Under the pieces are notes generated by a model. That model saw nothing but the letters and a program-made list of their open reading frames with translations. It had not been told where the DNA came from and made no database searches. The translations under genes were made by a program, and so were the position numbers. This document shows, piece after piece, positions 4,316 to 63,051 of a stretch of DNA of 64,000 nucleotides. Each line of letters opens with the position of its first letter. Positions within the stretch are counted from its first letter, which is position 1. The stretch lies in the NCBI RefSeq assembly GCF_963921235.1, contig NC_086108.1, positions 15,004,001 to 15,068,000 on the forward strand. Direction: 5' to 3'. Source of the stretch: Mobula hypostoma. Lineage: Eukaryota.

Positions 4316-4559
4316 AAGGGAGGTTTGACAAACTTGAGATGCTTTCTTTGGAATGTCTGAGACTGAGGGGAGAAATCTGGATTATACCCACGCCCCTCAC
4401 ACACCACCCCACTCTTATATTCAGGGCCACTCGTTTCCTGGAATTAAAGTTTTGTTCTCTGGTAACAGAACAGGACTTCGCAGTAACAAGGTGCGTGTTT
4501 CTTCACATTCAGACTGGCTTTATTCAGATGTCGTGTCTCCTGATGGTGGAATTACAGAG

Positions 4560-4848
4560 GCCAGGGCTGTTGCCCAGAGGGACAATGACACAGGGAACCA
4601 GTGTTGTTTTCCAGAGGGACATAGACACAGGGGCCACTGCAGTTCTCCAGTAGGACAGAGTCACAAGGGGCAGTGCTGTTATTGAGTGAGACAGAGATAC
4701 AGGAGCAGTGCAGTTCTCCAGAGGGACAGAGACACAGTGGGCAGTGCTGTTGCCCAGAGGGACAGAGACACAGGGGGCAGCGCTATTGCCCAGAGGGACA
4801 GAGACACAGGTGGCAGTGCTGTTCTCCAGAGGGGCAGACACAAAGGGG
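4560..4848. repeat. 36-bp minisatellite, about 8 diverged copies
   Basis: Unit gcagtgctgttgcccagagggacagagacacagggg starts at 4741, 4777 and 4813, with more diverged units upstream. Confidence 0.85.
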
Positions 4849-5554
4849 GAACTACTCTTTATTTCCAGGGGCTATTGTTTCCCCATTAGAGACCAGTGAC
4901 ACCCAGTATACAATCACTTGAGTTCCGAGTGATTCACACTCTCTGAAGTTGGGTGGGGTAGCGGAGGGAGGAGGACTTTGGTTGCTCAAGGAAGCACAGC
5001 CTCATATTTCCCCATGGGGACAAATAATTTCCAAAGTATATTTTAAAGGGGGCAGAGAGATACAGCATCCAGTAGTTCATCGGGCACTTCTTGTGTTTGG
5101 GCAGCTCTCAGGGTATCATCATCACTGGCTGAACGATGCTGTGGAAGACCACCACAGTCAAACTCAGAATCAAGGTAAATTTATGATCAAAGTATGCATA
5201 TGTAACGTATACTACCTTGAAATTCATTTTTTGCAGACATTGTCAGTAAAAAAAAATAACAGAATTTTATGAAAATCTAGGCATGAATAGGCAAAGACCG
5301 ACAAACACCAATGTGTAAAAGAAAACAAGCTGTGGAAATAAAAATAATACTGAGAACATATGTTATAAAGAGTCCCTGATAGGTCATAGAATCAGGTCAG
5401 AGTAATGGTATATGAAATTATCTACACCAATTCAGGAGCCTGATTGTTGTAGGGTAATAACTGTTCCTGAACTGAAAGGTGTGGGACCTAAGGCTTCGGT
5501 ACCTCATGCAAGGGATGAGCAGACAATGTGAGGGTACAGTTTCCATATAAACTG

Positions 5555-7470
5555 GAAGAGTCCATTCAGCCTTCTGAGCCTACTGTCCCCTTCAGTGTGA
5601 TCACGGTTGTTCATTCACTCCATTCCCACATTTTCCACAGACTTCTTGACTTCCTCGACCACAAGAACTACATCTACTCCCTTCCCAAACATACTTAATA
5701 GCTTGGTCTCCATATTTTCATTTAGGGGCTTCCATAGGTCCAGCACCATCTGAGGGGAGAAAATTCTCATGATCTCATTTTTAAATGGTTTAACATCATA
5801 TCTTGAAGCCCCTGGTTCAGAGCTCCCTTGCTACTGGGAATGTCCTCCTGCATTTAGTCAGTACACTCCTGTTAGAATATCAAGTCAAGTTGTGTTTATT
5901 GTCATGTGTACAAATCCAGTGAGCTATAGTTTCAATGAAAAACTTGCTTGCGGCAACATCAAAAGCACATAGATTCAGACAATGCATCAAACATAAATTA
6001 TATATAAATTATATACAAAACAGTGAAAGATAAGACAATGTAAAAGCTAGATCTAAGTGAGAAACAAAATCACAATTAAGAGAGAAGCTCATGGTGTGCT
6101 GTTGCTGAGGTAGGATTAGGGTTGTGCTGGTCAGTTCAAGAACATGATGATTGTAGGAAAGTAGCTGTTCCAGAACCTGATGGTGTGTTACTCCTTGAGA
6201 ATAGATGCAGCCTTCGTGCTGCCAGTGAATGTAGGTCCAGTTGACCCCCATCCCTCTTCAAGCATCAGATGCAGGAATCAGCCATCTAAACCCATGTTGC
6301 AATCCCTCTGTATAAAGAACATTCTCCCTTGGTTATGGAGGTCAAACCTACACACAAAAATCTAAGTGGAATTTCAGTAAGGCCCTGCACAGGTACATCA
6401 TGACATCCCTTCTCCTGGGCTCAAATCCTCTTGCAATGAAAGACATTTGCCTCCCTGAATGCTACATTTGGTGACTGGGTCACAAGGACACCAAGTCTTG
6501 TAGTACCGTTCTTTTTCCCCAAACTGTCACCATTCAGATAATAATCAGCTTTTTTGTTTCTAGAACCAGTGGGCAGCCTTGTATTTCTCCACCTTAAACT
6601 GCATTTGCCACACCTTTGCCCACCCACTCAAAGTGCATATGCCGCAGATTTGCCCACCCACACAAAATGAATTTACCACACCTTTGCCCACTTAAATTGT
6701 ATTTGCCACAATATGGTGTCCTCCACACTGAATAAACCAAATGCAGACTGAGTGACTGCTCTATATTCAGTGCACTATGTAACACTGACTTTCCCATTGC
6801 CTGCCATTTTAGTCCCCCATTCCACTCTGAACTATTGGCCTGTGATCTCCTGTACTGTCACAGAGAGGTCCAACACTAGCATGAGGAACAGCATCTTATC
6901 TTCAGTCCAGGAATGGCGTAGCCTTCCCAGTTTAATACTGAATTCTACAACTTCAGGTAGAGCCATTGAGTAATGCAGCACAGAAACTGATCCTTCAGCT
7001 CAACTGGTCCATGCTGACCACTGCATTCTCCTTACTACTCCCAGTTGCCCATGTTAGGCTCATAAGCTACAATGAGCCTCCCTCCAAGTACCTATCCAAA
7101 TGCCTCTTAAATCTTGCAATTATACCAGCCTCCTTCCTCTGGTAGCTCATTCCAGATACCCACTATCTTCTGCTTAAAGAAGTTATCTTTTTGATATGTT
7201 TTAAATCTCTCCCCACTTATCTTGTGTCTGTGCACTCCAGTTTTGGACTTTCTGACGCTGGGGAAAGACTATTAATAGCACTCATTATTTTATAGACTTC
7301 AGTGAGGTCACCCGCATTCTCCTACGCTTCAAGAAATAAAGATCTAGTCTGGCCAACCTCTCCCTATAACTCAGGCCCTGTCATCCAGGCAGTACCTTTG
7401 TAAATCTCTTCTTCACCCTCTCCAGCATGATAAGGTATTTCCTAAGAAAAGGATGATGAAACCTGTACCC
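5555..7470 (-). mobile_element. Old fragmented CR1 3' pieces mixed with other repeat fragments
   Basis: Minus-strand similarity to CR1 RT C-terminus and 3' UTR (e.g. NKKADYYLNGD); heavily decayed. Confidence 0.55.
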
Positions 7471-7489: not shown

Positions 7490-9045
7490 AGGTAGACCAT
7501 TTGTTTCTGCTTGTTTCTGCCACACCGAACTTATATCTGCATATCTCGACTCTGTTTTATCTCCCCTGGTTCAGTCCCTTCCTACCTACATCCATTCCCT
7601 GGCCCTGATCATTTCATTTTCACCTTGGATGTCCAGTCCCTATAGATCTCCATCCCCCATCAGGAGGGTCTTAAAACTCTGCAGTTCTTTCTATTCAACA
7701 GACCCAACCTATTCCCCTCCACCACCGCTCTCCTCCGTCTGGCGGAACTGGTCCTCACTCTCAAAAATTTCTCTTTCAGCTCCTCCCACTTCCTTCAAAC
7801 CAAAAGTCTAGCCATGGGCACTCGCTTGAGTCCCAGCTATGCCTGCCTTTTTGACGGCTACATGGAACAATCTATGTTCCAACCCTAACAATGGTATCAA
7901 TCCCCTATTTTTCCTATACTACACTGACAACTGCATTGGTGCTGCTTCCTGCACCCATGCTGAGCTCATCAACTTTGCCTCCAACTTCCACCCTGCCCTC
8001 AAATTTACCTGGTCCATTTTTGACACCTTCCTCCCCTTTCTCAACTTCCCTGTCTCTATTTCTGGAGACAGTTTATCTACTGATATCTTTTAAAACCCAC
8101 TGATTCTCACAGCTACCAGGACTAAATTCTTGTCGCCCTGTCATGTGCAAAAACGCCATCCCCTTCTCTCAGTTCCTCTGCCTCAGCCACATCTGCTCTC
8201 TGGATGAGGCATTTCATCCGACCTAATGAGATATCCCTCTTCTTTAAAGAAAGGGGCTTTCCTTCCTCCACCATCAACACTGCCCTCACCAGCATCTCTT
8301 CCATCCTGCGCACATTTGATCTCACCCCATCCCCCCACCACCCACAAGGGCCAGGGTTCCTCGTCCTCACCTATCACCTCACCAGCTTCCGTGTCCGGTA
8401 CATAATTCTCCGTAACTTCCGTCACCTCCAATGGATCCCACACCAAGCACATCTTCCTCTCTCTTCCTCCATCCCCCACCTCCACTTTTCTGCAGGGATA
8501 GCTCCCTTCTCAATTCATCCCTCTCCACTGATCTCCCTCCTGGCCCATTCCCATTCCAACATGTCAATCCATGGCCTCCTCTACTGAAGCCTTCAACTTG
8601 ATGGCATGAACACTGATTTCTCGAACTTCTGGTAATGTTCCCCTTTCAATTCACCATATCCCATTCCCAATTCCCTCCCTCACCTTATCTCCTTACCTGC
8701 TCATCAGCTCCCTCTGGTGCTTCTCCACCTTCACTTTCTTCCATGGTCTTCTACCCTCTCCTATCAGATCCCCCCTTCTCCAGCCCTTCATTTCTTTCAC
8801 CAATCAACTTCTCAGCTCTTTACTTCACCCCTCCCCCACCTCCTGGTTTCACATAGCACCTTGTACTTCTTCCTCCCCTCCCCCCACCTTCTTACTCTGA
8901 CTTCTCATCTTTCCTTGCAGTCCTGACAAAGGGTCTCGGCCTGAAACATCAACTGTTTGCTCTTTTCCATAGATGCTGCCTGACTTGTTAAATTCCTCCA
9001 GCGTTTCGTGTGTGTTGCTTGGATTTCCAGCATCTGCAGATTTTA
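7490..9045 (+). mobile_element. Penelope-like element (Neptune type), degenerate RT with internal deletion of most of the GIY-YIG domain, plus terminal repeat
   Basis: PLE RT motifs FTLDVQSLY, PHQEGLK, AMGTRLSPSYACLF and a decayed YIDD (YTDN); PFLNFPVSI thumb region; ends in the PLE terminal repeat with a decayed hammerhead at 8918-8955. Confidence 0.85.
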
Positions 9046-9049
9046 AAAA

Positions 9050-10186
9050 CGCAAACAACAGGAATTCGGCAGATGCTGGAAATTCAAGCAACACATATAA
9101 AGTTGCTGGTGAACGCAGCAGGCCAGCCAGCATCTCTAGGAAGAGGTACAGTTGATGTTTCGGGCCAAGACCCTTCGTCAGGACTAACTGAAGGAAGAGC
9201 TAGTAAGAGATTTGAAAGTGGGAGGGGGAGGGGGAGATCCAAAATGATAGAAGACAGAATGGGGAGGGATGGAGCCAAGAGCTAGACAGGTGATTGGCAA
9301 AAGGGATATGAGAGGATCATGGGACAGGAGGCTCAGGGAGAAGGAAAAGGGGGAGGGAGGATGGGCAAGGGGTATAGTCAGAGGGACAGAGGGACTCCCT
9401 TACCACCATTCAGGGCCCCAGACAGTCCTTCCAGGTGAGGTGACACTTCACCTGTGAGTCGGCTGGGGTGATACACTGCATCCGGTGCTCCCGATGTGGC
9501 CTTCTATATATTGGCGAGACCCGACGCAGGCTGGGAGACCGCTTTGCTGAACACCTATGCTCTGTCCGCTAGAGAAAGCAGGATCTCCCAGTGGCCACAC
9601 ATTTTAATTCCACATCCCATTCCCATTCTGATATGTCTATCCACGGCCTCCTCTACTGTAAAGATGAAGCCACACTCAGGTTGGAGGAACAACACCTTAT
9701 ATTCCGTCTGGGTAGCCTCCAACCTGATGGCATGAACATTTTCTCAAACTTCCGCTAATGCCCAACCTCCCCCTCATACCCATCCGTTATTTATGTATAT
9801 ACACACATTCTTTTTCTCTCTCTTCTTTTGCTCCCTCTGTCCCCCTAACTATACACCTTGCCCATCCTCTGGGTTCCCCCCCCCCTTTCCTTCTCCCTGG
9901 GCCTCCTGTCCCATGATCCTCTCATATCCCTTTTGCCAATCACCTGTCCAGCTCTTGGCTCCATCCCTCCCCCTCCTGTCTTCTCCTGTCATTTTGGATC
10001 TCCCCCTCCCCCCTCCCACTTTCAAATCTCTTACTAATTTCCTTCAGTTAGTCCTGACGAAGGGTCTCGGCCCGAAACGTCGACTGTACCTCTTCCTAGA
10101 GATGCTGCCTGGCCTGCTGTGTTCACCAGCAACTTTTATGTGTGTTGCTTGAATTTCCAGCATCTGCAGGATTCCTCGTGTTTGCG
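9050..10186 (+). mobile_element. Penelope-like element: GIY-YIG fragment between long inverted terminal repeats
   Basis: 9050-9392 is the reverse complement of about 9830-10186. The centre (9395-9758) encodes GVIHCIRCSRCGLLYIGETRRRLGDRFAEHL...GSLQPDGMNI with stops. Confidence 0.92.
10050..10085 (+). ncRNA. Minimal type I hammerhead ribozyme motif in the PLE terminal repeat (intact core)
   Basis: AGTC-CTGACGA-A-GGGT-CTCG-GCCC-GAAA-CG-TC-GACT. Helix I is AGTC/GACT, core CUGANGA and GAAA, helix II GGGU/GCCC, palindromic ACGU helix III. Predicted cleavage after GUC at 10081. Confidence 0.8.
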
Positions 10187-10324
10187 ATGCTAAGTGCCTT
10201 CTTCACAACCCCTTCTATTTGCATGGCTGCTTTGAGCAACCGTACACTTGTACTCCCAGGTCCCTCTGTTGCACAACACTCGTCAATCCCCTGCCATTCA
10301 CTGGTCTGAATGTCCAAAACGCAT

Positions 10325-14100: not shown

Positions 14101-14104
14101 GGAG

Positions 14105-14580
14105 GGGCGGTCACGGTTAGCGGACAGGGAGGGAAGATGAGGGGTGGGCACGGTTACCGGGGAGGGAAGATGAGGGGTGGGCACGGTTAGCGGACAGGGA
14201 GGGTGAGGAGGGGTGGGTACAGTTAGCAGGGAGGGAAGATGAGAGGCGGGTACGGTTACCGGAGAGGGATGGAGGGTGAGGAGGGGCGGGCACGGTTACC
14301 ATGGAGGGTAAGGAGGGGCGGACATGGTTACCGGGGAGGGAAGATGAGGGGCGGCACGGTTACCTGGGGAGGAGAATGAGGAGGGGCAGGCTTGGTCACC
14401 GGAGAGGTGACTACGGTTACCGGGGAGGGAGGGTGAGGAGGGTTGAGCACGGTTACCGGGGAGGGAGGGTGAGGAGGGTTGAGCACGGTTACCGGGGAGG
14501 GAGTAGGAGGAGAGGTGAGCACGGTTACCAGGGAGGGAGGGTGAGGAGGGGTGGGCACGCTTACTGGGAAGGGAAGGTAA
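14105..14580. repeat. G-rich minisatellite (unit about 30-35 bp)
   Basis: Repeated gcacggttaccggggagggagggtgaggaggggtgg and variants, more than 12 copies. Confidence 0.9.
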
Positions 14581-15989: not shown

Positions 15990-16633
15990 GGATGAATTTA
16001 GAACCAGAAATAGTTAAATAGTAATATGTAAATTATGCCAGTAAATTATGAAATAAGTCCAGGACCAGCCTATTGGCTCAAGGTGTCTGACCCTCCAAGG
16101 GAGGAGTTGTAAAGTTTGATGGCCACAAGCAGGAATGACTTCCTATGACGCTCAGTGCTGCATCTCAGTGGAATGAGTCTCTGGCTGAATGTACTCCTTT
16201 GCCCACCCAGTACATTATGTAGTGGATGGGAGACATTGACCAGGATGGCATGCAACTTGGACAGCATCTTCTTTTCAGACACCACCGTGAGAGAGTCCAG
16301 TTCCATCCCCACAACATCACTGGCCTTACGAATGAGTTTGTTGATTCTGATGGTGTCTGCTACCTTCAGCCTGCTGCCCCAGCACACAACAGCAAACATG
16401 ATAGCACTGGCCACCACAGACTCGTAGAACATCCTCAGCATCATCCAGCAGATGTTAAAGGACCTCATTCTCCTCAGGAAATAGAGACAGCTCTGACCCT
16501 TCTTGTAGACAGCCTCAGTGTTCTTTGACCAGTCCAGTTTATTGTCAATTCGTATCCCCAGGTATTTGTAATCCTCCACCATGTCCACACTGACCCCCTG
16601 GATGGAAACGGGTCACCGGTACCTTAGCTCTCC
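15990..16633 (-). mobile_element. Rex1/Babar LINE, RT C-terminus and 3' UTR (5'-truncated)
   Basis: YKYLGIRIDNKLDWSKNTEAVYKKGQSCLYFLRRMRSFN...VASAIMFAVVCWG; nearly identical to 41100-41720. Confidence 0.88.
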
Positions 16634-22533: not shown

Positions 22534-23550
22534 CATGATACCTTGCTATGTAGAAAGTAATATCAAGGTTCAATGTACCATAGTTCTTCTTACTGAGAAC
22601 AAGTTGGCACTCGTGTTGTAATGTAGCTAAAAGCAAGTTGATGCCCCCTGAATTCTCATAGCAAATGTATGGTCTTTATCACAGATGCAGAATAGACAAT
22701 TCATGTTATTATTTTTACTTGGTGTGGATTTTGCTGCCCAGGCAGGCGTTTATTGCCCACTTCTATCAAGCCTTCTCTTGGACTGCTGCTGGATTTCAGC
22801 TTTCTTTTCAATGAAGAATGATTTGTGGAGGCCACTCTGGGGATTTAGACCCAACAGTAATGGTAGAAATATTTACTTCCAGGTCAGATGGTGTGCGACT
22901 TGGAGGAGCACCTGTAATAGTGTTTCCAGGCCTCTGCTGCCTTTGTTCCTTGTGATGGTAGAGACTGGGTGTTTGGGAGGTGCTATTGGAGTAGCCTAGG
23001 CAAGTTTCTACAGAACATTTTGTACACCATGCACATTGCAGTTATGATGTAAGAGTGAAGGTCTCTGGACGTCAATAACGAAGAATCCAAGGAAATGTGA
23101 GTAGGAGTTGGACACTAGGCTTCTAAATCCATCTAGAATGATTGCAGTTGATCAACCATAGCCCTCCTCTCCTCGTCTATGTGTCTCAATTGCTTGATCA
23201 CCAGTAGGTGCTGGCATGCAGCCTTGTCTGACGTCTAGTCATTATTTTAATTACGAAGTATATATTATTCATTAAAAAATTCAATACAGAAGTTCAACAT
23301 TTTCATGAATGATGTTGTATTAATAAGTTAGCTGTCATCCATTTATTAAGTTCAATAATTTTATGGGTTTTAACATATTTTTAACTATAGGACCTGAGCT
23401 GCTGCTATTCCCCATAAGACCTCTACAAGTTTTCTTTCAAAAACAATAACTTTATTAATTTATTTACAAGGCTCATTGCAATGTTAGGTTAAAGTGCAAC
23501 TGCGGTGGGCAGCTTGCTTGAAAGGTTGTGGCAATGTCCATTTCTTTGGA

Positions 23551-23835
23551 GCAACACACATCAAAGTTGCTGGTGAACGCAGCAGGCCAGGCAGCATCTC
23601 TAGGAAGAGGTACAGTCGATATTTCAGGCAAAGACCCTTCGTCAGGACTAACTGAAGGAAGAGTAGGTAAGAGATTCAAATCTTACCTACTCTTCCTTCA
23701 GTTAGTCCTGACAAAGGGTCTCGGCCTGAAACGTCGACTGTACCTCTTCCTAGAGATGCTGCCTGGCCTGCTGCGTTCACCAGCAACTTTGATGTGTTGC
23801 TTGAATTTCCAGCATCTGCAGAATTCCTGTTGTTT
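23551..23835. mobile_element. Fold-back mini-element made of two inverted PLE terminal repeats
   Basis: 23551-23676 pairs with about 23680-23800, followed by an unpaired tail of about 35 nt. TSD ccatttctttgga at 23538-23550 and 23836-23848. Confidence 0.92.
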
Positions 23836-33600: not shown

Positions 33601-33816
33601 AAACAACAGGAATTCTGCAGATGCTGGAAATTCAAGCAACACGCATCAAAGTTGCTGGTGAACGCAGAAGGCCAGGCAGCATCTGTAGGAAGAGGTGCAG
33701 TCGACGTGTCAGGACGAAGTTAGTCCTGACGAAGGGTCTCAGCCTGAAACGTCGACTGCACCTCTTCCTACAGATGCTGCCTGGCCTGCTGCGTTCACCA
33801 GCAACTTTGATGTGTG
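33601..33816. mobile_element. Fold-back mini-element of inverted PLE termini (tail on the left)
   Basis: 33640-33716 pairs with 33722-33816. TSD tttctgtatatgg at 33588-33600 and 33817-33829. Confidence 0.92.
33722..33757 (+). ncRNA. Minimal hammerhead ribozyme motif (core intact)
   Basis: AGTC-CTGACGA-AGGGTCTCAGCCT-GAAA-CGTC-GACT. Confidence 0.7.
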
Positions 33817-33922
33817 TTTCTGTATATGGAGTTTGTGAAGGAGCAGTTGGTCTGCTGGTATGTAGAGGCCGTAATCTGTTGTGTTAATGTGCTCAGATCT
33901 TATTGTGTGGAGGCTTTCCTGA

Positions 33923-34530
33923 TGTGCAGTGGATGTTGTGTATTGATGGTGTGCAGTGGATGTTGTGTATTGATGGTGTGCAGTGGATGTTGTGTATTGA
34001 TGGTGTGCAGTGGATGTTGTGTATTGATGGTGTGCAGTGGATGTTGTGTATTGATGGTGTGCAGTGGATGTTGTGTATGCTGGTTAGCAGTGGATGTTGT
34101 GTATTGATGGTGTGCAGTGGATGTTGTGTATTGATGGTGTGCAGTGGATGTTGTGTATTGATGGTGTGCAGTGGATGTTGTGTATTGATGGTGTGCAGTG
34201 GATGTTGTGTATTGATGGTGTGCAGTGGATGTTGTGTATGCTGGTTAGCAGTGGATGTTGTGTATTGATGGTGTGCAGTGGATGTTGTGTATTGATGGTG
34301 TGCAGTGGATGTTGTGTATGCTGGTGTGCAGTGGATATTGTGTATTGATGGTGTGCAGTGGATATTGTGTATTGATGGTGTGCAGTGGATATTGTGTATG
34401 CTGGTGTGCAGTGGATATTGTGTATGCTGGTGTGCAGTGGATATTGTGTATGCTGGTGTGCAGTGGATGTTGTGTATTGATGGTGTGCAGTGGATGTTGT
34501 GTATTGATGGTGTGCAGTGGATGTTGTGTT
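33923..34530. repeat. 27-bp tandem repeat, about 22 copies, with 26-bp variants
   Basis: Unit tgtgcagtggatgttgtgtattgatgg, which gives the 9-aa periodicity VQWMLCIDG in the ORF track. Confidence 0.95.
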
Positions 34531-35370: not shown

Positions 35371-37609
35371 CAAGGTATGTTGTATTCCAGATTTGATCTC
35401 CTTTGAATCTCCTACCCCTCTCCTTAAACCTACACTCTCATAACTTGTCCAGTCTGTCCTTGTAACTGAAATGCTTCATCCCAGACAACATCCTGGTGAA
35501 TCTCCTCTGTATTTTCAGCATAGTCACATTCTTCCTACAGTGTGGCAACCACATCTACGCAACACTCCAGCTGTGGTCTAGCCATTCTTTTATAAAATTT
35601 TAACATGATATCCTAGCTCTCATATCAATATGAAATATTGGATGCTGGTGAATGTTCCAAAGGTTCTTTGTGAGTTAAGGATGAGGCATGAAACCTGGCG
35701 GTAATGGCGGTTTCTTAAGTGTAATGAGAACAAAGAGCGAAACAACAAAAAGACCAAGAGGAAAGAAATCATAGTCATCTCATGCTAAAAATTACCTCAA
35801 ACTAGAAAGATAACTTGACTCCATGATAACCAATAACCTAAGAACTAACCAGATTCAAGTGGCATGACACCTGCTACAGAAAAATCTAAGAAGCTTCTAG
35901 AAAAATACAGAATTAGCTAGACTATAATTACTGAACAATTACACATATATACTATAGGTGATCGTGTAAAACACAAACAGGTATAGGAAAGTTAAGCTAC
36001 AGCAGTTTTACTCCAGTCCAGCAAAAGTCTGCTTTTTCCTGTGGGTGCTGTACTGTGTTAGTCTGGCATATTTTATTTACTCCTAATTTAGTGTGAAGAG
36101 TGTGTGTGCAGTTTTAGATGAAGGCTCATCAGACTGATGCCAAAAGGCTGTGCTTGGTGCTGAGTGAAGAACATGTTTTGTGTTGATATGTGGATCCAGT
36201 CCTTAGTCCTATATTTGCATGTGCAGGCAGTGTGTGGCTCCATTCTGACGTGGAGATACAGCATGTGGTTCTGTGTGGGCTGTCAGGGCTGAGTATGGCA
36301 GCAGCATGCTAACATTTCTGTCACCCACTAACACGGTGCTGGTACATATAGGAAATGCATCATTGCACCAGAGAAGGTGTAGAGGAGATATTAACTGGGA
36401 AGGGGGTTTACTGTCCTGGGGAGATTGAAATGGCGTGATTTATGTTTAGAGTGGAGGAGGTTGGGTAGTGTACAGACAGTAGGAAGAATTGCTGGGCAAC
36501 AAGCCAATGTGCCAAAAGGAATTTATTGCGGATGAGCGTATGGAGATGCAATTTGGCAGAAGGGACGGGAAGGAGGTATTGTAAACTGATACATTCCAAA
36601 CTGTGCAAGAATAGAAGCCCCACACAGATTTTTTTTTTGGAACGTTGGCTTCATTTGACAAGCAGCATTTATTGCCCATCCCTAACCACCCTGGAGAAGG
36701 TGATGGTTATCTGCCTTCCTGAAGGATTGCACGCATTCTGGCATAAGTGCTTCCTCGGTGCTGTTGAATAGTGAGTGTAAGGGTTTGGGCCCAACCATTG
36801 TCATATGTATTTCCATGATAGGGTTATGTGGCATTTGAGAGTCCTGCAGGAACTTGGGATCCAGTAGGTCACGGTATTCTCATATATTTGCTGCCCTCGT
36901 CTTTCTGGATAATAGAGATCACAGGTTTGGAAAGTGGTAGTGGGATTGCTTATACACATAATAGCAATATATTTTGTGGAAGATGCACACTGAACCACTG
37001 TGCACTGATGGGCTAGAGAGAATGAATGCTTAGATTTATACAGTGTCAATCAAGCAGGCTATTTATCCTTAAACACATTGAGCTTGAGTTTTTTGAGCTG
37101 AATTTGTGTAGGCATCTAAAGATTATTGCATCACACCAACAAAATGTCTTTGGATAAGGTTTGGAATGTCAAATGGTGAATGACTTGTCACAGGGTATCC
37201 AGGCTCTGATTTGCTATTATGAGTTCAGTATTTATATGGGTGCAAAAACTGAGTTGCTGGAGTTCCATAAGCAGCTTGTTTTTTGCACCAGATTCTGTAT
37301 TTGTAGAATCGTATGTTTATTTATGTGACTGGTCCATATGCTTCTGGACAATGCTGACTACACTATATGGACTGAGTATGGGTGGTTAGGCTGTCACATT
37401 GGAGGTGGTCAATGTTCAGTATTTCTGAGGGAACAATGTTATTTGCCACTTAGTGGCCCATACTTAAACATTGGTTAAGTATTCCTAAGTGTAAGCTTAG
37501 GCCACTTAATTTGCAGAGGGCTAAGAATTAAACTGAAGCTCTAATCATCAGTGAACACCTCTGCTTGCGGTAGATGAAGGGTCTTGACCTGAAAGGTCAG
37601 CTATCCAAA

Positions 37610-39400
37610 GTTCAAAGTAAAATTGATTATCAGAATGCATACATGACATCACACGCAACCCTGAGATTCTTTTTTTCTGTGGGCATACTTAGCAAATCTA
37701 TAGAACAGTAACTGTAAACAGGATTAATGAACAACAAACTATGCAAATGCAATTATAAATAAATAGCAATAAATAATGAGCATGAAATAACAAGAGTCCT
37801 TAAAGTGAGACCATTGGTTGTGGGAACACCAGAAATAGACTGAGTGTAGTTAAACCCCTTTTGTTCAAGAGCCTAATGGCTGAGGGGTAATAGCTGTTCT
37901 TGAACCTGGTGGTGCAAGTCCTGAGGTACTTTTACCTTCTACCTGATGACAGCAGCAAGAAAAGAGCATGGTCTGGGTGGTGAGGATCTTTAATGAAGGA
38001 TACTTTTCTACGGCAGCATTCCATCTAGATGTGCTCAATGGTTGGGAGGACTTTACCTGTGATATACTGGGCCAAATCCACTACCGTATGTTGGATTTTC
38101 AGCTCAAAGGCATTGGTGTTCCCATACCAGGCTGTAATACAGCCAGTTAGCACACTTTACACCATACATTTATAGAAGTTTGCCCAGGTTTTTGATGAGA
38201 TGCTGAACTTCCGCAGACTCCTGAGGGAGGAGAAGTGCTGTCATGCTTTCTTTGCAATTATATTTGTGTGATGATTCCAGCTCCTCTGAGATAGTGACAC
38301 CCAGAGGAATTTAAAGTTACTGACCCCTCTCCATCTCTGATCCTCATGGACCTCTGGTTTCCCTCTCTTGAAGTCTACAATCAGTTCCTTGATCTTATTG
38401 ACATTGAGGGAGAGGTTGTTATTGCACCACTCAGCCAAATTCTTAATCTCCCTCCTGTATGTTGATTGGCCCACAATGGTGGTGTCATCAGCAAACTTGT
38501 ATATGGTGTTAGAACTGTACTTAGCCACACAGTCATAGGTGTAAGGCGAATAGATAAGAGGGCCTAAGCACACATCCCTGTGGTGCTCCAGTGCTGATGG
38601 AGATTGTGGAGGAGATATTTTTGTCAATCCGAACTGACTGGGGTCTACAAATGAAGAAATCCAGGATCCAATTGCACAAGGGGGTATTGAGTCCCAGGTC
38701 TTGAAGTTTACTGATTAGTTTTAAGAGACGATGGTATTAAATGCTGAGGTATGATTGATAAGGAGCATCCTGATGTATGCATCTTTGCTGTCCAGATGTT
38801 CCAGAGTTGTGTGAAGAGCCCACGTGACAGCATCTGCTGTAAACCTGTTGCTCCGCTTGGCGAATTGGAGCGGATCTAAGTCGCCACCCAGACAGGAGCT
38901 GAGCTGCTTCAACACCAACCTCTCAAAACACTTCATCACAATGGATATAAGTGCCACTGGGTGATAGTCATTTGGACAGATTATCACGCTCTTCTTGTGC
39001 ACTGGTATGATTGAAGCCTGTTTGAAGCAGGTGGATACCGCACACTGCTGGAGTGAGAGGTTGAAGACATCCGTGAATGCACCAGCCAGTTGGTCAGCGC
39101 AGGTCTTCGGTACTCGGCCAGGTACTCTGTCCAGACTGGATGCTGTCCTTGGACTCACTTTCTTGGAGGCAGCCTGCACGTCATCTCCAGATACTGAGAC
39201 CAAAGGATCATCCGGAGACATGGGGGTGTGCAATGGTTCCTCCCTGTTCTGGTGGTCAAAGTTAGCATAACTCTGCTGTCCCCAATGTCGCAAGATTTAA
39301 CTTTGTAGGAGGTTATGGCATTCAAACCCTGCCACAACTGTTGAGCATCCCTTGTCGACTCCAGTCTTGACTGGAATCTCCACTTCGCCCATGAGGTGGC
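37610..39400 (-). mobile_element. Rex1/Babar LINE, degenerate RT and 3' UTR
   Basis: CADQLAGAFTDVFNLSL, NDYHPVALISIVMKCFERLV, LDPLQFA and KFADDTTIVG. Confidence 0.9.
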
Positions 39401-40811: not shown

Positions 40812-41812
40812 CTTGATTACCTGACTGGCAGACCACAGTACATGTGCTTGCAACACTGTGTGTCCGACAGAGTGATCAGCAGCACTGGGGCTCCACTGGG
40901 AACTGTCTTGTCTCCCTTTCTCTTCACCATTTACATCTTGGACTTCAACTACTGCACAGAGTCTTCAGAAGTTTTCTGATGACTCTGCCATAGTTGGATG
41001 CATCAGCAAGGGAGATGAGGCTGAGTACAGGGCTACAGTAGGAAACTTTGTCACATGGTGTGAGCAGAATTATCTGCAGCTTAATGTAAAAAAGGCGAAG
41101 GAGCTGGTGGTAGACCTGAGGAGAGCTAAGGTACCGGTGACCCCTGTTTCCATCCAGGGGGTCAGTGTGGACGTGGTGGAGGATTACAAATACCTGGGGA
41201 TACGAATTGACAATAAACTGGACTGGTCAAAGAACACTGAGGCTGCCTACAAGAAGGGTCAGAGCCATCTCTATTTCCTGAGGAGACTGAGGTCCTTTAA
41301 CATCGGCCGGACGATGCTGAGGATGTTCTACGAGTCTGTGGTGGCCAGTGCTATCATGTTTGCTGTTGTGTGCTGGGGCAGCAGGCTGAGGGTAGCAGAC
41401 ACCAGCAGAATCAACAAACTCATTTGTAAGGCCAGTGATGTTGTGAGGATGGAACTGGACTCTCTGACGGTGGTGTCTGAAAAGAGGATGCCATCTTGGA
41501 CAATGTCTCCCATCCACTACATAATGTACTGGGTGGGCACAGGAGTACATTCAGCCAGAGACTCATTCCACCAAGATGCAACACAGAGTGTCATAGGAAG
41601 TCATTCCTGCCTGTGGCCATCAAACTTTACAACTGCTCCCTTGGAGGGTCAGACACCCTGAGCCAATAGGCTGGTCCTGGACTTATTTCCTGGCATAATT
41701 TACATATTACTATCTAACTATTTATGATTTTATTACTATTTATTATTTATGGTGCAACTGTAACGAAAACCAATTTCCCCCAGTGATCAATAAAGTATAA
41801 TTTATGACTATG
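40812..41812 (+). mobile_element. Rex1/Babar LINE, 5'-truncated RT and 3' UTR
   Basis: TGAPLGTVLSPFLF, KFSDDSAIVG and LYFLRRLRSFNI; tail aataaagta...tatgactatgact. Confidence 0.9.
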
Positions 41813-42307: not shown

Positions 42308-45300
42308 AATTGTGGTACATATAGGTACCAATGACATAGGTAGGAAAAGGGATGAGGTCCTGAAAGGAGAATATAGGGAGCTAGGAAGGGAGTTGAGAAA
42401 AAGGACCGCAAAGGTAGTAATCTCGGGATTACTGCCTGTGCCACGCGACAGTGAGAGTAGGAATGTGATGAGATGGAGGATAAATGTGTGGCTGAGGGAT
42501 TGGAGCAGGGGGCAGGGATTCAAGTTTTTGGATCATTGAGACCTCTTTTGGCGCAGGCGTGACCTGTACAAAAAGGACGGGTTACACTTGAATCCTAGGG
42601 GGACCAATATCCTGGCAGGGAGATAAGCGAGGGCTACTGAGGTGACTTTAAACTAGAATGGTTGGGGGGTGGGAATCAAATTAAAGAGGCTAGGCGTGAG
42701 GAGGTTAGTTCACAACAGGGGGATGGGAACCAGTGCAGAGAGACAGAGGGGTGTAAAGTGAGGGTAGAAGCAAAAAGTGCTAAGGAGAAAAGTGAAAGTG
42801 GCAGGCTGACAAATCCAGGGCAAGCATTAAAAAGGGCCACTTTTCAACATAATTGTATAAGGGCTAAGAGAGTTGTAAAAGAGCGCCTGAAGGCTTTGTG
42901 TGTCAATGCAAGGAGCATTCGTAATAAGGTAGATGAATTGAAAGTGCAGATTGTTATTAATGATTATGATATAGTTGGGATCACAGAGACATGGCTCCAG
43001 GGTGACCAAGGATGGGAGCTCAACGTTCAGGGATATTCAATATTCAGGAGGGATAGACATGAAGGAAGGGGAGGCGGGGTGGCGTTGCTGGTTAAAGAAG
43101 AGATTAACGCAATAGAAAGGAAGGACGTAAGCCGGGAAGATGTGGAATCGATATGGGTAGAGCTGCATAACACTAAGGGGCAGAAAACGCTGGTGGGAGT
43201 TGTGTACAGGCCACCTAACAGTAGTAGTGAGGTCGGAGATGGTATTAAACAGGAAATTAGAAATGTGTGTAATAAAGGAACAGCAGTTATAATGGGTGAC
43301 TTCAATCTACATGTAGATTGGGTGAACCAAATTGGTAAAGGTGCTGAGGAAGAGGATTTCTTGGAATGTATGTGGGATGGTTTTTTGAACCAACATGTCG
43401 AGGAACCAACTAGAGAGCAGGCTATTCTGGACTGGGTTTTGAGCAATGAGGAAGGGTTGATTAGCAATCTTGTCGTGAGAGGCCCCTTGGGTAAGAGTGA
43501 CCATAATATGGTGGAATTCTTCATTAAGATGGAGAGTGACATAGTTAATTCAGAAACAAAGGTTCTGAACTTAAAGAGGCGTAACTTTGAAGGTATGAGA
43601 CGTGAATTAGCTAAGATAGACTGGCAAATGACACTTAAAGGATTGACGGTGGATATGCTATGGCAAGCATTTAAAGGTTGCATGGATGAACTACAACAAT
43701 TGTTCATCCCAGTTTGGCAAAAGAATAAATCAAGGAAGGTAGTGCACCCGTGGCTGACAAGAGAAATTAGGGATAGTATCAAGTCCAAAGAAGAAGCATA
43801 CAAATTAGCCAGAGAAAGTGGCTCACCTGAGGACTGGGAGAAATTCAGAGTTCAGCAGAGGAGGACAAAGGGCTTAATTAGGAAGGGGGAGAAAAGATTA
43901 TGAGAGAAAACTGGCAGGGAACATAAAAACTGACTGTAAAAGCTTTTATAGATATGTAAAAAGGAAAAGACTGGTAAAGACAAATGTAGGTCCCCTACAG
44001 ACAGAAACAGGTGAATTGATTATGGGGAGTAAGGACATGGCAGACCAATTGAATAGTTACTTTGGTTCTGTCTTCACTAAGGAGGACATAAATAATCTTC
44101 CAGAAATAGTAGGGGACAGAGGGTCCAGTGAGATGGAGGAACTGAGCGAAATACATGTTAGTAGGGAAATGGTGTTAGGTAAATTGAAGGGATTGAAAGC
44201 AGATAAATCCCCAGGGCCAGATGGTCTGCATCCTAGAGTGCTTAAGGAAGTAGCCCAAGAAATAGTGGATGCATTAGTGATAATTTTTCAAAACTCGTTA
44301 GATTCTGGACTAGTTCCTGAGGATTGGAGGGTGGCTAATGTAACCTCACTTTTTGAAAAAGGAGGGAGAGAGAAACCGGGGAAATTATAGACCGGTTAGC
44401 CTAACGTCGGTGGTGGGGAAACTGCTGGAGTCAGTTATCAAAGATGTGATAACAGCACATTTGGAAAGCGGTGAAATCATCAGACAAAGTCAGCATGGAT
44501 TTGTGAAAGGAAAATCATGTCTGACGAATCTCATAGAATTTTTTGAGGATGTAACTAGTAGAGTGGATAGGGGAGAACCAGTGGATGTGGTATATTTGGA
44601 TTTTCAAAAGGCTTTTGACAAGGTCCCACACAGGAGATTAGTGTGCAAACTTAAGGCACACGGTATTGGGGGTAAGGTATTGGTGTGGATGGAGAATTGG
44701 TTAGCAGACAGGAAGCAAAGAGTGGGAATAAACGGGACCTTTTCAGAATGGCAGGCGGTGACTAGTGGGGTACCGCAAGGCTCAGTGCTGGGACCCCAGT
44801 TGTTTACAATATATATTAATGACTTGGATGAGGGAATTAAATGCAGCATCTCCAAGTTTGCGGATGACACGAAGCTGGGTGGCAGTGTTAGCTGTGAGGA
44901 GGATGCTAAGAGGATGCAGAGTGACTTGGATAGGTTGGGTGAGTGGGCAAATTCATGGCAGATGCAATTTAAAGTGGATAAATGTGAAGTTATCCACTTT
45001 GGTGGCAAAAATAGGAAAACAGATTATTATCTGAATGGTGGCCGATTAGGAAAAGGGGAGGTGCAACGAGACCTGGGTGTCATTATACACCAGTCATTGA
45101 AAGTGGGCATGCAGGTACAGCAGGTGGTGAAAAAGGCGAATGGTATGCTGGCATTTATAGCAAGAGGATTCGAGTACAGGAGCAGGGAGGTACTACTGCA
45201 GTTGTACAAGGCCTTGGTGAGACCACACCTGGAGTATTGTGTGCAGTTTTGGTCCCCTAATCTGAGGAAAGACATCCTTGCCATAGAGGGAGTACAAAGA

Positions 45301-45786
45301 AGGTTCACCAGATTGATTCCTGGGATGGCAGGACTTTCATATGAAGAAAGACTGGATGGACTGGGCTTGTACTCGTTGGAATTTAGAAGATTGAGGGGGG
45401 ATCTGATTGAAACGTATAGAATCCTAAAGGGATTGGACAGGCTAGATGCAGGAAGATTGTTCCCGATGTTGGGGAAGTCCAGAACAAGGGGCCACAGTTT
45501 GAGGATAAAGGGGAAGCCTTTTAGGACCGAGATTAGGAAAAACTTCTTCACACAGAGAGTGGTGAATCTGTGGAATTCTCTGCTACAGGAAACAGTTGAG
45601 GCCAGTTCATTGGCTATATTTAAGAGGGAATTAAATATGGCCCTTGTGGCTATGGGGATCAGGGGGTATGGAGGGAAGGCTGGGGCGGGGTTCTGAGTTG
45701 GATGATCAGCCATGATCATAATAAATGGCGGTGCAGGCTCGAAGGGCCGAATGGCCTACTCCTGCACCTATTTTCTATGTTTCTAT
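42308..45786 (+). mobile_element. Young, 5'-truncated CR1 LINE (ORF1 esterase end, near-intact ORF2, 3' UTR) inserted into an older CR1
   Basis: VHIGTNDIG (SGNH) is followed by endonuclease and RT ORFs; it ends in ttctatgtttctat. The host reads gaggaaatt...gctgaggccctg across the junctions. Confidence 0.95.
42662..45696 (+). pseudogene. CR1 ORF2 (APE endonuclease + reverse transcriptase) broken by two frameshifts (near 43885 and 44378)
   Basis: ORFs 42662-43903 (NARSI, GITETWL, YRPP, GDFN, SDH), 44016-44390 and 44353-45696 (QHGF, DFQKAFD, GVPQGSVLGP, FADD). Confidence 0.93.
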
Positions 45787-59248: not shown

Positions 59249-59391
59249 CAACACACATAAAAGTTGCTGGTGAACGCAGCAGGCCAGGCAGCATCTCTAG
59301 GAAGAGGTGCAGTCGACATTTCAGGCCGAGACCCTTCGTCAGGACTAACCCTCAGCTTGAATTTCCAGCATCTGCAGAATTCCTGTTGTTT
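59249..59391. mobile_element. 143-bp PLE-terminus insertion: inverted arm joined to a sense tail
   Basis: 59249-59349 is the reverse-complement terminus and 59355-59391 the sense tail. TSD actcttatcctga at 59236-59248 and 59392-59404. Confidence 0.9.
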
Positions 59392-62098: not shown

Positions 62099-63051
62099 AG
62101 TAACGGGTGCCACCTCCAATGGGATCCCACCACTAAGCACATCTTTCCCTCCCCCCTCTCTCTGCATTCCGCAGGGATCGCTCCCTACGCAACTCCCTTG
62201 TCCATTCGTCCCCCCCATCCCTCCCCACTGATCTCCCTCCTGGCACTTATCTGTGGAAGCAGAACAAGTGCTACACATGCCCTTACACTTCCTCCCTTAC
62301 CACCATTCAGGGCCCCAAACAGTCCTTCCAGGTGAGGCAACACTTCACCTGTGAGTCGACTGGGGTGATATACTGCGTCCGGTGCTCCCGATGTGGCCTT
62401 TTATATATTGGCGAGACCCGACGCAGACTGAGAGACCGCTTTGCTGAACGTCTACGCTCTGTCCGCCAGAGAAAGCAGGATCTCCCAGCGGCCACACATT
62501 TTAATTCCACATCCCATTCCCATTCTGACATGTCTATCCACGGCCTCCTCTACTGTAAAGATGAAGCCACACTCAGGTTGGAGGAACAACACCTTATATT
62601 CCGTCTGGGTAGCCTCCAACCTGATGGCATGAACATCGACTTCTCTAACTTCCGCTAAGGCCCCACCTCCCCCTCGTACCCCATCTGTTTCTTATTTTTA
62701 TGCACACATTCTTTCTCTCGCTCTCCTTTTTCTCCCTCTGTCCCTCTGAATATACCTCTTGCCCATCCTCTGGGTCACTCCCCCCCCCTTGTCTTTCTTC
62801 CCGGACCTCCTGTCCCATGATCCTCTCGTATCCCCTTTTGCCTATCACCTGTCCAGCTCTTGGCTCTATCCCTCCCCCTCCTGTCTTCTCCTGTCATTTT
62901 GGATCTCCCCCTCCCCCTCCAACTTTCAAATCCCTTACTCACTCTTCCTTCAGTTAGTCCTGACGAAGGGTCTCGGCCTGAAACGTCGACTGCACCTCTT
63001 CTTACAGATGCTGCCTGGCCTGCTGCGTTCACCAGCAACTTTGATGTGTGT
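62099..63051 (+). mobile_element. 5'-truncated Penelope-like element (Neptune type): Cys-rich linker, GIY-YIG endonuclease and terminal repeat
   Basis: Open frame about 62137-62658: AFRRDRSLRNSLVHS, KCYTC, GVIYCVRCSRCGLLYIGETRRRLRDRFAE...GSLQPDGMN. TSD ccctctagatga at 62087-62098 and 63052-63063. Confidence 0.93.
62956..62991 (+). ncRNA. Minimal hammerhead ribozyme motif (core intact)
   Basis: AGTC-CTGACGA-AGGGTCTCGGCCT-GAAA-CGTC-GACT. Confidence 0.72.

Follow-up and report, generated by a model that had tools for sequence, protein, structure and literature searches.

The closest described relatives of the sequence studied here are the minimal hammerhead ribozymes (min-HHRs) of Penelope-like elements (PLEs). 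As described in the 2014 survey by Cervera and De la Pena (PMC4209133), these have a type I topology, a CUGANGA box followed by one extra base, a G at position 10.1, a GAAA box, a 2-nt palindrome replacing helix III, and an NUH triplet. The unpaired base between 9 and 10.1 is a hallmark of the class, the upstream sequence is pyrimidine- or U-rich, and copies are mostly solitary or on opposite strands in truncated PLEs. All of these features recur in the ray motif described below. Among the rows of that survey, Neptune of Acropora digitifera has the same core letters and the same 4-bp helix II as the ray motif, whereas helix II of the schistosome families has 7-8 bp. Published min-HHRs showed no activity as monomers and little cutting as dimers (PMC4209133).

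The Poseidon element PAc of Anolis carolinensis (Frangieh et al., 2024; PMC11167929), the one PLE assayed together with its protein, likewise carries a hammerhead in its pseudo-LTR (pLTR), inserts from unprocessed RNA, and has two classes of 3' ends 30-40 nt apart that define a tail downstream of the cut. Its ribozyme cut only in the presence of the element's protein, with rescue at C3/G8, its ribozyme mutants inserted normally in vitro, where the cut was dispensable, and RNA-seq gave no ends at the cut site. PAc differs from the ray element in belonging to the Poseidon clade and in starting its ORF within stem II, where the ray motif has no ATG; its start sites are described as AC-rich, while the sense strand is GU-rich at both ray end sites. 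In Drosophila virilis, Penelope (PMC4209133; PMC2377424) also has a pLTR hammerhead, and an intron whose end coincides with the 5' boundary of helix I; the acceptor-like signal of the ray element would be a parallel to this intron end. Penelope differs in having a 2-bp helix I, a bulged helix II, a small helix III and a proven intron, whereas neither a donor nor a spliced read was found for the ray element. Non-LTR retrozymes (bioRxiv 10.64898/2026.07.22.740005) share a type I hammerhead in short non-coding pLTR-derived copies, but are defined by head-to-tail tandem units, none of which occur in the window. The in vivo role of PLE hammerheads is still called unclear in PMC8557442.

The window, that is the whole 64,000-nt stretch of DNA analysed, contains at 10050-10085 what is almost certainly a minimal hammerhead of type I, located in the 3' pLTR of a very abundant Neptune-type PLE in a myliobatiform-ray-like genome. 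The parts of the motif are as follows.

10050..10085, plus strand: minimal type I hammerhead motif (36 nt), the only copy that combines five intact CpGs with G10.1-C11.1
10050-53/10082-85, plus strand: helix I
10054-10060, plus strand: core box C3-A9, CTGACGA, followed by an unpaired A at 10061
10062-65/10070-73, plus strand: helix II, 4 bp (three G-C, one U-G), with a CUCG loop
10074-77, plus strand: GAAA box
10077-10080, plus strand: loopless palindrome ACGU, 15.1-16.1, standing in for helix III
10079-10081, plus strand: GUC triplet, predicted cut after 10081 (consensus in Fig. S3 of PMC4209133)

Direct reading of the sequence placed every box and helix where the initial annotation had put them. 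It had also described helix III as a loopless palindrome, and 15.2-16.2 is indeed palindromic with no helix III loop. The unpaired A10061 between 9 and 10.1, absent from that annotation, was invariant in 13/13 aligned rows. Position 11.1 of helix II corresponds to nt 10073 and is a U in six of the eight window copies, which thus have G10.1-U11.1, while the copies at 10050 and 9150 have a G10.1-C11.1 pair. The motif at 10050 presents CUGANGA, GAAA and an NUH triplet in type I order under a strict descriptor. The hammerhead-pattern search proposed as a check had a split outcome: the strict descriptor returned four matches in the window against a shuffle mean of 0.00, but Rfam returned none in the window and none at E<=10 in 9900-10250. 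Folding energy was not above that of shuffles either (z -0.15 to -1.18 in 6/6 stretches), and the case therefore rests on pattern, position and comparison. On its sequence, the ray motif has every testable defining feature of the known PLE min-HHR class, and in kind it is not new.

The PLE copies in the window that carry or adjoin the motif were delimited as follows.

7491..9043, plus strand: older diverged PLE subfamily copy, with a broken reverse transcriptase (RT; 7491-8440), part of the endonuclease (EN), and a pLTR motif at 8919-8954 with G8 changed to A
9050..9394, minus strand: inverted 5'-truncated copy of 9832-10186, 90% identical, with a motif at 9150-9185 changed at G16.2 and G1.1
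9395..9758, plus strand: GIY-YIG endonuclease end, 5'-truncated and stop-interrupted, 63% identity to P0007, owner of the 10050 motif
23550..23835, both strands: inverted pair of short pLTR copies, with motifs at 23614-23649 (minus) and 23704-23739 (plus), both changed in the core, and a 14-nt target-site duplication
33601..33821, both strands: inverted pair, with a half motif to 33717 (minus, with tail), a motif at 33722-33757 (plus, no tail), and a 14-nt target-site duplication
59249..59391, mixed strands: minus-strand copy and a tail alone, inverted, with a motif at 59311-59346 changed at C15.2 and a 13-nt target-site duplication
62100..63051, plus strand: 5'-truncated PLE without tail, with a GIY-YIG ORF end at 62137-62658, a motif at 62956-62991 and a 12-nt target-site duplication

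The motif had been assigned to a PLE terminal repeat, and this was borne out by its class hallmarks and by its pLTR position after a GIY-YIG ORF on the sense strand. Three motif copies were continuous with RT/EN coding sequence; the one at 62956 begins 298 nt 3' of the stop of a 173-aa frame (62137-62658). The GIY-YIG match of this frame was weak (Pfam E 0.003, under the curated cut-off), and among its 14 matches identity was 89% to a Mobula hypostoma RT-EN protein, 75-82% to Hypanus and 60-64% to two shark proteins, which makes a myliobatiform ray the most likely host. The order of an RT followed by a C-terminal GIY-YIG was seen in the remains at 7491-8637 and in relatives P0007 and P0011, and the window holds no intact full ORF. 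Relatives P0001, P0002, P0007 and P0011 have a CX4CxxC linker, of which the 62137 copy lacks the first C. A CX2-5CxxC linker between RT and EN marks Neptune and is also present in Nematis (PMC8557442); by this linker the element would be classed as Neptune-type. Target-site duplications of 12-14 nt flanked four of the five insertions examined, four of five had an inverted partner or an inverted tail, and a search for a duplication around 9050-10186 found none. No direct pLTR-ORF-pLTR tandem, the active form, occurs within the window, and the eight window copies are 5'-truncated, CpG-decaying relics that most likely do nothing.

Several further repeats were recorded in the same stretch. An older PLE endonuclease fragment lies at 6790-6957 on the plus strand (36% to P0007, E 8e-6), with no motif detected after it by the covariance model, and a 27-nt tandem array at 33919-34529 (22.7 copies, 95% matches) starts ~100 nt past the 33601-33821 PLE insertion. 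A nearly intact CR1/L2-type LINE ORF2 is present in three overlapping frames at 42641-45696 on the plus strand (Pfam Exo_endo_phos and RVT_1), and a second LINE family, whose C-terminus gives an ALKBH8_N-like match, is represented by pieces at 40876-41661 (plus), 16070-16612 (minus) and 38241-39296 (minus). G-rich minisatellites occupy 4554-4853 (36-nt unit) and 14102-14576 (32-36-nt unit). Ray gene models P0015, P0016, P0003, P0004 and P0010, which are named as host genes, contain or consist of PLE sequence; to judge from these sequences, the PLE repeat contaminates, or is exonised in, ray annotations.

An ungapped scan of both strands recovered eight full copies with 0-5 mismatches, in line with the previous count of at least eight, while in 50 mononucleotide shuffles of the window there were no matches with up to 10 mismatches and 0.06 with up to 13.

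Motif copies, start and strand: 8919 plus, 9150 minus, 10050 plus, 23614 minus, 23704 plus, 33722 plus, 59311 minus, 62956 plus
37567..37602, plus strand: strongly decayed motif, probably of another subfamily, 13 mismatches (covariance model 37573-37598, E 0.006)

The positions previously given for mutated copies were right for 23614, 23704 and 59311, and off by one for two others, whose true starts are 8919 (not 8918) and 9150 (not 9149). Mutation had been ascribed mostly to CpG-type transitions, and all 19 differences among the eight copies indeed fell on CpG positions (18 transitions and 1 transversion), with none at the 26 non-CpG positions of the motif. This absence of non-CpG changes was not counted as selection, because private non-CpG changes were, by eye, rare in the flanks too. 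The three cores reported as intact (10050, 33722 and 62956) keep all core letters, but 33722 and 62956 have G10.1-U11.1 rather than G-C; the other five of the eight copies are changed in the core or palindrome, at G8, C15.2 or G16.2. The covariance model was built from the eight window copies and five related loci and recovers the same eight by construction. It also matched the 5'-clipped half copy ending at 33717 (minus strand; E 0.16, near 33700), and two further matches at E 0.37-0.58 were taken as chance.

The repeat is present at very high copy number, with 93,369 contigs of run X1 matching the stretch. U11.1 made up 49% (X1) and 59% (X9) of summed contig depth, compared with 10-13% at other CpG sites in X1, and reads as a subfamily letter that is also found in published min-HHR rows. 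The contig variant table had no rows for 10050-10066, CpG 10058-59 included, and that segment was not counted as conserved. CpG decay was lower in X9, whose RNA label is a guess, than in X1, a difference that was set aside as shallower contig sets lose rare variants. Raw-read runs X21 and X22 had 0 reads on the stretch, and among viral contigs there were 0 pattern matches and 0/39 confirmed candidates. U11.1 and the self-pairing permitted by a C at position 7 were considered as oddities of the ray motif and dropped, since both occur in published rows (PMC4209133); a literature search for the G10.1-U11.1 combination itself returned no paper.

Conservation was assessed between ray subfamilies and between families, both of which had been named as tests of the ribozyme reading. 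Between the 8919 subfamily and 10050, 0/26 non-CpG motif positions differed, compared with 60/216 in the flanks (Fisher p 0.0004; 41/130 upstream and 19/86 downstream, the downstream flank alone giving p 0.004), which upheld the expected excess conservation of the motif. Among the best-supported loose contig ends in run X1 are 10050, 10051 and 10087, which coincide with the motif edges, where other subfamilies diverge. An EN-alignment scan of metagenome contigs confirmed 14 loci out of 364 candidates, with 41-67% protein identity; in 13 of these 14 related PLE loci the EN is followed at a short distance by a same-strand min-HHR, and the 14th contig stops before the site. Ten of the 13 motif-bearing loci passed the strict descriptor (shuffle mean 0.01) and three more were found by the covariance model. 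The flanks in this distant family have no alignable DNA with the ray repeat, and the core letters are identical. Helix I/II covariation was likewise found, with 6/8 pairs changed on both sides and the core kept (5/13 loci aligned), and pairing held in 98% of 104 cells as opposed to 26-45% in slid controls; this covariation represents two lineages only, as all 13 loci belong to a single family, with a median upstream identity of 97%. The letters invariant between the two families are exactly the catalytic ones. The C-terminal peptide of P0008, a model protein from the zebra shark, would be compatible with the motif read in frame.

All eight 3' ends that could be mapped run 64-105 nt past the predicted cut at C17 and form two classes, at 64-68 nt (four ends) and 102-105 nt (four ends). 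The sequence between them is listed below, and loose contig ends also accumulate at 10183 and 10186.

10147..10186, plus strand: PLE 'tail', ~37 nt, between the two 3' end classes

As all mapped 3' ends lie past the cut, the integrated templates must have been uncut or religated there. The ~37-nt stretch is the known PLE tail and fits the two reverse-transcription start sites of the Anolis element (PMC11167929). In the insertions at 23550-23835 and 33601-33821, one pLTR segment occurs twice, inverted, within one target-site duplication, one arm with the tail and the other without; inverted-copy insertions are described for PLEs in PMC8557442. In two copies (33718 and 59349) the 5' truncation point lies just 3-4 nt ahead of helix I, and contig joints and loose ends are many at 10046-10052, which may be a preferred truncation point or mere subfamily divergence.

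The initial annotation had proposed that the family processes its transcripts with a dimeric ribozyme. Membership of the dimer class stood, but a simple version of the claim is disfavoured by uncut or religated templates, the lack of an intact tandem pair and a preference for inactive folds, and also by the weak cutting of published dimers and by the Anolis ribozyme, which needed protein to cut and was dispensable for insertion in vitro. Under nearest-neighbour energies, which here come from a 2D model that ignores core tertiary contacts and Mg2+, the active double hammerhead reached -14.7 vs -23.8 kcal/mol for two monomers; for L001 the gap between active dimer and monomers was 1.5. The inactive monomer fold, favoured by ~9 kcal/mol in this model, pairs G5-G8 with C15.2-C17, and the same self-pairing is possible in published min-HHR rows with C at position 7 (PMC4209133). 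The modelled preference for an inactive fold fits a need for help in cleavage. No intact same-strand motif pair exists within the window; 8919 shares the strand of 10050 but has lost G8. Inverted neighbours of 10050, 23704 and 33722 are predicted to pair with them, and in a read-through RNA 35/36 bases of 10050 are predicted to form dsRNA with the inverted 9150 copy.

The best overall explanation, which I hold with good though not full confidence, is that of a PLE min-HHR that acts as a trimmer in tandem master copies, where the cut is not needed for integration and the window copies are relics. Cleavage in the master copies would, by inference from published PLEs, somewhat more probably than otherwise be slow, dimeric and protein-assisted. 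In active tandem master copies, two motifs would swap strands and their two ACGU palindromes would form helix III, and the RNA would then be cut slowly after C17, probably helped by the element's own protein. The cut would trim long read-through tandem precursors. Because reverse transcription would begin beyond the cut, at two sites ~65 and 103 nt further downstream, and would read through the motif, the cut would not be required for integration.

A different reading of the same facts is that the fold persists for a purpose other than catalysis, as a protein-binding or RNA-RNA pairing handle, and that cutting is incidental in this PLE family. I consider this unlikely, even though integrated templates are uncut at the predicted site, U11.1 subfamilies have spread as well as C11.1 ones (the 49% of depth in X1 against 10-13% at other CpGs), and 2D energies favour inactive folds. 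In the literature, catalytic mutants had no effect on insertion in vitro (PMC11167929) and Naiad PLEs thrive without a canonical hammerhead (PMC8557442). Against it stands that precisely the catalytic letters are invariant between families, that G10.1-U11.1 occurs in several published rows including S. mansoni(1) and so does not signal loss (PMC4209133), and that cleavage by the Anolis motif does take place once protein is added, with rescue at C3/G8 (PMC11167929).

A more speculative extension concerns the edge of helix I, where a splice-acceptor-like signal was noted.

10030..10051, plus strand: splice-acceptor-like signal with a branch-point-like word, a pyrimidine tract, AG at 10046-47 and AG at 10050-51 (start of helix I)

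In copies with enough flank, a branch-point-like word lies at -19 to -21 and 15-16 of 20 nt are pyrimidines; AG forms the first two bases of helix I in 6/6 copies examined, and loose-end consensuses of other subfamilies are similar. The branch-like word, pyrimidine tract and YAG are common to two subfamilies whose flanks are ~30% different. A post-hoc acceptor filter passed 55 of 8,911 window AGs and three of the four helix-I AGs tested. It is conceivable, though doubtful, that a pLTR intron of this vertebrate Neptune-type element has its 3' splice site in the two opening bases of helix I, with splicing rewriting helix I and gating the ribozyme, as noted to date for D. virilis Penelope, and that two RNA templates are brought together for a dimeric reverse transcriptase through the hammerhead dimer interface. 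Such template pairing, if true, would explain the inverted twin pLTR insertions within one target-site duplication at 23550-23835 and 33601-33821. Against an acceptor, the pLTR is pyrimidine-rich throughout and the distant family has no AG there; a U-rich upstream sequence is part of the published min-HHR consensus (PMC4209133). Searches for exonised host proteins gave 2/8 matching candidates in one frame, of which the first reads through the site and the second begins after it, and 0/1 in the other frame, and no spliced junction at the acceptor-like site appeared in these host-protein searches. Consensus-like splice donors are present in the EN coding sequence of both ray copies (9433-9440 and 62331-62338, plus strand), where shark residues differ; these donor-like sites are a possible partner for the acceptor-like site.

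That dispersed copies cut host RNAs today, whether by pairing in trans or by pairing with a nearby copy on one pre-mRNA, is very unlikely. The 93,369 matching contigs in X1, two host gene models that take in the motif region, and the three window copies with every core letter would provide the opportunity, but five of eight copies are changed in core or palindrome, core-CpG decay looks neutral at 10-13%, inverted partners would be predicted to bury 10050 and 23704 in dsRNA, and published dimers are slow even in cis (PMC4209133). A tandem non-LTR retrozyme family, as opposed to PLE ends, has very little to recommend it: retrozymes derive from pLTRs and are found in one chondrichthyan (bioRxiv 10.64898/2026.07.22.740005), and several window copies are just ~100-160 nt, but 0/17 TRF rows cover a motif, three copies run on from RT/EN coding sequence, and the short copies bear PLE tails, inversions and target-site duplications. 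Chance resemblance within a passively copied repeat, which a short motif, an empty Rfam search and shuffle-like folding energy might suggest, is practically discounted by a family without alignable flanks that has an identical core at the equivalent position and on the same strand, by compensation in both helices and by excess motif conservation between ray subfamilies.

The preferred reading thus remains a PLE min-HHR. No report of such a motif in rays or sharks was found in the openly accessible literature searched, and the 56 rows extracted from Fig. S3 of PMC4209133 include no cartilaginous fish. With this motif, rays join the animals whose PLEs carry minimal hammerheads, as a specialist would expect. 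The ray PLE family is good test material, being very abundant and split into several subfamilies; its target-site duplications are clean and its 3' ends fall into two sharp classes, and it would allow tests of orientation bias, cyclic-phosphate ends and splicing at scale.
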